Shown here: piece after piece, positions 27,743-28,711 of the stretch
How positions within the stretch are numbered: the stretch's first letter is position 1
How the letters are laid out: every line of letters begins with the position of its first letter
Source of the DNA: an uncultured Chloroflexia bacterium
Lineage (GTDB): Bacteria; Chloroflexota; Chloroflexia; Chloroflexales; Kallotenuaceae
Length of the DNA stretch: 64,000 bases
Direction of reading: 5' to 3'
Assembly (NCBI GenBank): GCA_963782315.1
Contig: CAWAJS010000027.1
Location: 69,959 to 133,958, forward strand
Program-made: the position numbers and the translations under genes
Notes under the pieces: generated by a model
The model's database searches: none
The model's input: only the letters and a program-made list of their open reading frames with translations
Told to the model about the DNA's origin: nothing

Positions 27743-27865
27743 CGACCGACCAATGACCAACGGAGAAAGCACACATTGCTATCAAGTTATTCACTGCCGT
27801 ACAGAAAATATGAGCTAAAGTAGCGATACGTGTTACATCGTGATGATCTCTAGGAGTGCTATCGG

Positions 27866-28411
27866 ATGCAACAGCCGAGCCTTGAAACTGCACGTCTTGT
27901 GCTTCGCCCCTTTATGCGAGCGGATGCACCTACGGTCCACCAGCTTGCAGGTGTAAATGACGTTGCCGATACAACTCTGAATATTCCTCATCCATATCCT
28001 GATGGTGCCGCCGAGCAGTGGATTGCCACCCACCCCGAAAATTTCAGCTCAGGTCGCGCCGTGACCTTTGCCATTGTGCTTCGCGAAACGGCACACATAT
28101 GTGGGGCGATGAGTCTGGGTCTGACACCGCCCCATCGGCACGCGGAGCTTGGCTACTGGCTAGGTCTTCCCTACTGGAATCATGGCTATATGACGGAAGC
28201 GGCTGCTGCGCTGCTCACGTATGGCTTTACGACCCTTGGCTTACACCGTATCCACGCTCGCCACTTCACGCGGAACCCGGCATCTGGACGGGTGATGCAG
28301 AAACTTGGCATGACCTTTGAAGGGGTCCAGCGTGAACACATTCGCAAAGGAGACCGGTTCGAAGATGTAGCCAACTATGGCATCCTAAGCCGTGAATGGC
28401 AACCAAAATAA
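27866..28411 (+). CDS. GNAT family N-acetyltransferase (RimJ/RimL-like, Acetyltransf_3), cargo of the TIR cassette
   Basis: 181-aa intact ORF; SD AGGAG 8 nt upstream. Confidence 0.8.
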   Translation: MQQPSLETARLVLRPFMRADAPTVHQLAGVNDVADTTLNIPHPYPDGAAEQWIATHPENFSSGRAVTFAIVLRETAHICGAMSLGLTPPHRHAELGYWLGLPYWNHGYMTEAAAALLTYGFTTLGLHRIHARHFTRNPASGRVMQKLGMTFEGVQREHIRKGDRFEDVANYGILSREWQPK

Positions 28412-28450
28412 CCCTGTACTACGATTCAGAACATCGTCATAGTTGTGTTT

Positions 28451-28588
28451 TCACTACCGTACAGGATTTGAACTAGAATCGGGACGTGCAATGCTTGGTA
28501 TGCTCTTCCTTGCTTAGTAGCCTTCAGGCTGGGAAAAGAAGAGTGACATATATCCCGGCATTAGTTCATATTTTCTGTACGGTAGTCA
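28451..28588. mobile_element. nested 138-bp MITE-like unit (third TIR copy plus right TIR)
   Basis: TCACTACCGTACAG at 28451-28464 (direct) and GACTACCGTACAG at the right end (inverted) enclose about 110 bp of non-coding AT-rich sequence. Confidence 0.35.
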
Positions 28589-28711
28589 ACCAAGTTATGG
28601 CAATGCGTGCTTCTGTATGTATATGGTCGGTGGCTGGTGCCTGAAAGTCGATGCTCGTAGGGAATGTGGCCTGCTTCCCGTTTCTCTCGTTTGCTTTCTG
28701 TTCTTTGGTCG

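Follow-up and report, generated by a model that had tools for sequence, protein, structure and literature searches.

A probable IS4-family mobile insertion cassette carrying a GNAT acetyltransferase gene within an intergenic hairpin of a Chloroflexia genome

Results

Organisation of the locus

The locus lies in a 64-kb stretch of Chloroflexia DNA, the whole of which is referred to here as the window. Genes for an M19 dipeptidase (26621-27742, plus strand) and fmt (28712-29695, minus strand) converge on an interval holding an element of 800 bp (27790-28589) that is bounded by insertion sequence (IS) ends, carries one passenger gene and is without a transposase gene (Table 1). A first-pass annotation, made from the sequence alone, had placed a transposase-less cassette between these two genes, and both gene assignments were confirmed. 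The two 28-bp inverted repeats that it described are present, with 25 of 28 positions matching between 27791-27818 and the reverse complement of 28561-28588. The 17-mer CCGTACAGAAAATATGA, common to both arms, occurs exactly twice in the 64 kb against an expectation of 0.04.

Two aspects of the repeat structure differ from that initial description. The repeats are real but do not stop at 28 bp, as inverted symmetry of ~76% extends ~92 nt per side (27745-27836 versus 28543-28631), passing through a direct 8-mer and into the hairpin target described below. A third copy of the repeat, beginning at 28450 (28450-28464 and onward) and oriented like the left arm, had also been overlooked, and all three copies of the motif in the window reside at the GNAT locus. 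They are designated L, M and R from left to right. The AT-richness ascribed to the cassette as a whole holds for the IS-derived ends and spacers, to which a G+C content of 0.42-0.49 is confined, but not for the GNAT body, which at 0.55-0.60 is near the 0.58-0.64 of the surroundings.

The absence of a transposase from the element was upheld, with tblastn searches using the transposases of both related ISs described below yielding no match anywhere in the 64-kb window. No intact IS of the parent family was found in the window, a Pfam scan of five neighbouring gene products detected no recombinase domain, and an Rfam scan of 27000-29500 (E<=1) returned no matches. Separately, the fmt ORF (327 aa, ATG at 29695) was observed to be ~15-19 aa longer than all homologues (305-312 aa) and to overlap the start of a divergent HD-domain ORF, so that the true fmt start is probably at about 29650.

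Table 1. Coordinates of the features that make up the element and its target site (window positions)
Feature	Position	Strand	Basis or remark
Hairpin left arm (target, outside the mobile element)	27745-27781		Starts 3 nt past the dipeptidase stop codon
Target-site duplication copy 1, TCAAGTTA	27782-27789		Abuts the L terminus; same as copy 2 in L038
L arm: IS left end, about IS positions 1-60, pointing inward	27790-27849	+	nhmmer, alignment
Passenger GNAT gene (RimJ/RimL-type, PF13302), 181 aa	27866-28411	+	AGGAG at 27852-27856
M arm: third IS left-end copy, IS positions 1 to ~113	28450-28560	+	nhmmer, alignment
R arm: inverted IS left-end copy	28502-28589	-	First 20 nt equal the IS terminus TTGACTACCGTACAGAAAAT
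Target-site duplication copy 2, CCAAGTTA (TCAAGTTA in the sister genome)	28590-28597		L038 comparison
Hairpin right arm (target)	28598-28631		Pairs with the left arm; fold; L208 homology

The parent insertion sequence

A scan of species-representative genomes with the 17-mer gave mostly chance matches among those listed, together with a clear excess in Chloroflexia MAGs; for the sister genome of the window, only the L arm was returned among the matches listed. The first-pass annotation had proposed a search for an IS transposase with matching ends, and this was found in two related Chloroflexia genomes. At no fewer than 14 loci of OY969916.1, a Chloroflexia MAG chromosome of 11.26 Mb, the 17-mer is the terminus of a 1256-bp IS with 20-bp perfect terminal inverted repeats (TTTGCTACCGTACAGAAAAT), a 400-aa ORF, and a perfect 8-bp target duplication in 11 of the 11 copies for which both flanks were available. 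A related 1258-bp IS in LS2_sbin.21 (L102; this IS is termed IS102 here) has the terminus TTGACTACCGTACAGAAAAT and the duplication TCGGCGTT. Across the parent family, all 12 complete copies have 8-bp duplications and end at the same base. In addition, the copies on OY969916.1 (L034:953-2208 and 13 further loci) are near-identical and carry 8-bp duplications, and this IS appears to have been recently active.

The IS transposase matches PF01609 (DDE_Tnp_1) with an E-value of 2e-13, and its best NCBIfam model is IS4_2 (NF033591; E 7e-41), at 140.5 bits against a cut-off of 152. The ORF carries YRMRFRIECMFANHK, a Y-2-R-3-E-6-K motif, which is a criterion of the IS4 family, and the duplications of that family measure ~8-13 bp, with 8 bp inside the ranges of the IS4Sa, IS50 and ISPepr1 subgroups (PMC2266710). 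Judged by its sequence, the parent IS is assigned to the IS4 family as a divergent lineage that agrees with the motif and duplication criteria and falls short of the curated NCBIfam threshold. It resembles the family as described by De Palmenaer et al. 2008 (PMC2266710) in its DDE_Tnp_1 domain, YREK signature, length of ~1.25 kb, terminal repeats of ~20 bp and 8-bp duplication, whereas its termini (TTTGCTA.../TTGACTA...) are unlike the conserved CA/CT ends listed there for the IS4Sa, IS50 and ISPepr1 subgroups.

Three left-end copies around one gene

In nhmmer searches with a profile derived solely from four foreign IS left ends, all three arms were recovered, L at 27791-27839 (E 9.8e-11), M at 28451-28533 (E 1.6e-9) and R with an E-value of 3e-9, and all three are of the left-end type. 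The L arm is 94% identical to IS102 positions 8-42, with two mismatches within its first 7 nt. The R arm is 96.6% identical to IS102 positions 1-29, its 20 terminal nucleotides matching with zero mismatches. The M arm aligns to IS102 positions 1-115 and includes, in decayed form, the 5'UTR, the Shine-Dalgarno sequence and the beginning of the transposase gene that was lost. Facing each other, M and R make up an IS remnant of ~140 bp without a transposase (28450-28589), and the termini of the whole element read TTCACT... on the left and ...AGTCAA on the right. The similarity of L and M is only ~75%, with indels between them; M and R have derived bases in common that are absent from L. Given the mismatches near the L terminus, and two substitutions that the R arm of the sister genome shows in the conserved core, the element may have lost its mobility already.

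The homologous left end of the related IS (L102:3347-3220, minus strand, corresponding to window 28450-28560) encodes a transposase mRNA 5' leader that folds at -35.3 kcal/mol (z -4.1), and in the predicted fold the Shine-Dalgarno sequence and start codon pair with subterminal sequence. The arrangement suggests that translation of read-through transcripts is occluded, as is known from IS10 and IS50. The foldback look of the M-R remnant results from the IS left-end RNA being itself a strong hairpin.

Solo ends of the IS4-family parent lineage were also observed away from the window locus. One of these (L023:1598-1916) lacks an inverted partner within 7 kb. A 90-aa ORF begins 46 nt downstream of it, and alongside are a pair of overlapping short ORFs, of 89 and 127 aa, that are toxin-antitoxin-like by eye only.

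Target-site duplication

A 10-bp direct repeat had been reported to abut the inverted repeats, and such 10-mers are indeed present around CAAGTTAT, namely ATCAAGTTAT (27781-27790) and ACCAAGTTAT (28589-28598). When read from the true IS termini, the duplication is instead 8 bp, TCAAGTTA on the left and CCAAGTTA on the right. The two copies match at seven of eight positions in the window and at eight of eight in the sister genome (L038), where TCAAGTTA stands on both sides; the chance of a complete match at fixed positions is ~1.5e-5. The duplication pairs L with R and has the length made by the parent IS. The M-R module alone has no duplication of its own, with GTTGTGTT to its left and CCAAGTTA to its right.

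Sister genome and empty sites

The sister genome, the MAG MFD01275.bin.2.120, also designated CAWBPU01, is 98.0% identical to the window over 8 kb and has the same element layout. Divergence between the two across window positions 23732-31739 is mosaic, at 0.1-0.5% from ComEA through the dipeptidase gene, the L arm and GNAT, and 3-6% from ~28441 on (M-R, fmt, HD, ADH), which places a recombination breakpoint at or beside the GNAT/M junction. A reading of the higher divergence as decay of M-R was dropped, the right flank (fmt, HD, ADH) having diverged equally.

The relatives have a common gene order of lactamase_B-like, ComEA, pyruvate kinase and dipeptidase genes converging on fmt, HD, ADH and Band_7. 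In four syntenic relatives the gap between the dipeptidase gene and fmt measures 4 nt (L123 and L124), 20 nt (L125) and 125 nt (L208), and neither a GNAT gene nor IS ends were found in this interval in any of them. The empty site anticipated by the first-pass annotation was therefore recovered as an empty interval but not as the exact single ATCAAGTTAT, which is absent from all four because the inner hairpin sequence has diverged. A GNAT gene at this position without flanking repeats, the case named there as contrary evidence, was not found in the syntenic relatives. Precise excision would leave the junction ...GCTATCAAGTTATGGCAAT..., and an exact search of JGI metagenomes with the reconstructed empty site CATTGCYATCAAGTTATRGCAATG gave no matches. 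The cassette was not found at a second site, the one known insertion site being that of the window and the sister genome.

A hairpin as the insertion target

The outer left arm pairs with the outer right arm, with 13 of 15 positions matching beside the duplication. The empty site, rebuilt by removing 27790-28597, has a predicted fold of -41.8 kcal/mol (z -5.5), a long hairpin whose loop contains TCAAGTTA. In the relative L208, which lacks the cassette, a long hairpin occupies the corresponding position, and the outer arms of the window are homologous to the outer stem of that hairpin (ACCGACC...CGGAGA / TCTCCG...GGTCGGTGG); the outermost part of the left arm is also found downstream of the dipeptidase gene in L126. 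As the outer arms are present in a cassette-free relative, they are target DNA and not part of the element, and the inverted flanks beyond the duplication arise because the target is itself a palindrome. This supports insertion of the element into the loop of a pre-existing long intergenic hairpin.

Flank complementarity is 2-8 of 20 positions at the other insertions of the family versus 13 of 20 here. With non-palindromic flanks at those other sites, hairpin targeting is not a rule of the family, and the location in a hairpin loop is a singular observation within it. An uninterrupted exact inner hairpin with a single TCAAGTTA was not found in JGI metagenomes, and the outer-arm motif showed no further copies in the window that would mark it as a dispersed repeat.

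The passenger gene

The annotation of one intact RimL-like GNAT gene with its own Shine-Dalgarno sequence was correct, the encoded protein matching PF13302 with an E-value of 6.8e-36. Homologues are abundant in Chloroflexi (5905 matches, the best, L001, at 88% identity), and those at 52-88% identity sit in unrelated gene contexts, none of them between IS ends. Homology of the window to L001 covers only ~27850-28449, taking in ~16 nt before the ATG and 38 nt after the stop codon, and stops at the very position where M starts, which delimits the passenger segment to ~27850-28449. Around 80 JGI GNAT-homologue loci, and around L002 and L003, the search for IS ends returned chance-level matches only, and, L001 apart, no flanking IS ends were found at any of the 83 other GNAT-homologue loci.

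At L001 itself, where the gene order is cupin-GNAT-RibD_C, one inverted left end of the IS family (L001:1380-1430, E 3e-4) was observed 48 nt upstream of the GNAT gene, with its terminus facing the gene, and a remnant of the M terminus (12 of 15 positions) may be present where the window homology stops. This end is compatible with, and not proof of, IS-mediated shuffling of the GNAT lineage. A junction of L arm and GNAT common to the window and L001 was also considered and dropped, as the alignment did not exceed shuffles.

The suggestion that the cargo could be an antibiotic- or toxin-modifying acetyltransferase was not borne out. All its NCBIfam scores lie far below the cut-offs (the best being RimJ, 34 bits versus 190; BlmB, 21 versus 625; SpeG, 25 versus 218), its homologues are chromosomal and occur in many contexts, and its PDB relatives are uncharacterised GNAT or RimJ/RimL-type proteins. 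By sequence comparison the cargo is classed as an ordinary chromosomal RimJ/RimL-type acetyltransferase, presumably a relocated host gene, for which a resistance role is without support. Directly upstream of a 73%-identical homologue in L003 (5160-6558) is an AadA_C/NTP_transf_2 nucleotidyltransferase-like gene, the sole hint of an antibiotic-modification context and one that was not seen at other loci.

A sigma-70 promoter scan detected no convincing GNAT promoter in the L arm, with the M copy alone scoring, and a terminator scan found none. As the hairpin is now split, GNAT may be expressed by read-through from the dipeptidase gene.

Discussion

The element at 27790-28589 is probably a non-autonomous IS4-family derivative with a passenger gene, and thus a mobile insertion cassette of the kind represented by MIC231. 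It combines IS-type terminal repeats, the absence of a transposase, a passenger ORF, a duplication of the parent length and an insertion polymorphism, all of them features of such cassettes. The non-autonomous cassette proposed in the first-pass annotation is thus supported by the IS ends, the 8-bp duplication and the empty site. In the history that we favour, IS copies or derivatives would have come to flank the GNAT gene on both sides and would then have lost their transposase genes. An intact IS copy would have provided, in trans, a DDE transposase that bound the outermost inverted ends, L and R, and the 800-bp unit would have been cut from its donor site and pasted into the hairpin loop between the convergent dipeptidase gene and fmt. 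Staggered cuts 8 bp apart, followed by repair, would account for the duplication of TCAAGTTA. Because one insertion site is known, we infer rather than observe that GNAT was aboard when the ends transposed and that the element moved as a unit; mobilisation in trans is likewise presumed. A broader version of this history would hold that IS4-family ends in Chloroflexia routinely package chromosomal genes into transposase-less cassettes and that the lineage prefers the loops of long hairpins (structure-directed DDE targeting); with the hairpin split, read-through from the upstream operon would then control the captured gene. We consider this broader version very unlikely.

The main alternative is a two-step assembly, in which a small transposase-less L...R derivative of the IS entered the hairpin loop, producing the duplication, and GNAT together with M came in later through homologous or illegitimate recombination with another locus flanked by IS ends, so that GNAT never transposed as cargo. 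The duplication proves only that L and R were the ends used here, and the arrangement of IS positions 1-60 twice in direct orientation around GNAT, in L and M, is one that integration of a circle through a single crossover would leave. The derived bases of M and R that are missing from L, and the divergence jump beside the GNAT/M junction, which establishes that recombination has occurred there, are also in its favour. We nevertheless judge it unlikely, as L and M, with their limited identity and indels, are a poor substrate for homologous recombination, no trace of an original interior remains between L and the native upstream DNA of GNAT, and a donor with GNAT flanked by IS ends would be needed just as in the transposition of a complete unit, plus one extra step. 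It is kept under consideration because of the single known insertion site and the divergence jump at ~28441.

Readings that do not involve transposition fare less well against the same observations. Inverted arms around a direct 8-bp core are what integration between a palindromic attP and attB leaves behind, so that the arms could be attL/attR-like sites of a serine or tyrosine recombinase, or else the borders of an invertible segment. This is highly improbable, as the inner arms are IS termini that at 12 other sites end at the same base, with 8-bp duplications and with flanks that are not palindromic, the outer arms are present in a relative that lacks the element, and no recombinase gene is present among the neighbouring genes examined; in an inverton, moreover, the core would be inverted, whereas here it is direct. 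We regard it as extremely improbable that the motif is a promoter or operator common to several genes and that the flanking 8-mer is a coincidence. The motif does start with a -35-like TTGACT, its M copy scores as promoter-like, and solo copies such as that of L023 stand upstream of ORFs. Elsewhere, however, it marks the ends of an element that encodes a transposase and is flanked by target duplications, its only three copies in the 64 kb are all at one locus, the complete flank match in L038 has the low chance probability given above, and the whole segment is missing from relatives. The operator half-site that the first-pass annotation had set against its own reading was discarded on this ground, the other occurrences being IS termini. 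An integron cassette was likewise rejected, with no attC-like core or array present and with the evidence for IS copies in hand.

If the mobile insertion cassette reading is accepted, the anatomy of the element is familiar. In mobile insertion cassettes, such as the IS231-derived elements of Bacillus cereus and the 'mic' elements of qnrD and qnrS2, the terminal repeats of an IS4-family IS bracket an unrelated passenger gene, with no transposase, a target duplication of the parent-IS length and presumed mobilisation in trans. The present element is like MIC231 in all of these respects. It differs in its Chloroflexia host, in its derivation from another IS4-family lineage with termini TTGACTACCGTACAG, in a duplication of 8 bp versus the 10-12 bp of MIC231, in having outer ends that are both of the left-end type together with a third internal end copy, and in being known from a single insertion site, with trans-mobilisation here proposed by inference. 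In composite transposons of the Tn9 type, the cargo lies between directly repeated IS copies and the outermost ends are used. The element resembles these in having IS-derived sequence on both sides, with L and M oriented as directly repeated IS left ends, but neither flanking IS is intact here, the left being reduced to ~60 nt and the right to the ~140-bp transposase-less remnant, and the element therefore cannot be autonomous. The M-R module alone is similar to a MITE in its size of ~140 bp, its inverted IS ends and its lack of an ORF; unlike a MITE, it has no duplication of its own, and the full L-R element is 800 bp long and coding. The MIC231 papers appear as references B2 and B3 of PMC2266710, and mobile insertion cassettes are also a subject of PMC3913671.

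The anatomy of the cassette is thus already known and this case leaves the understanding of the transposition mechanism unchanged; what is well supported as particular to it is a divergent IS4-family parent in Chloroflexia and an unusual three-end structure. When the target of an insertion is itself palindromic, the result can look like a pair of recombinase-type sites, a point that annotation pipelines may usefully take into account. For this phylum, whose mobile elements are poorly catalogued and mostly known from MAGs, the locus documents an IS-end-bounded passenger cassette in Chloroflexia together with its empty site, its parent IS and a matching duplication.
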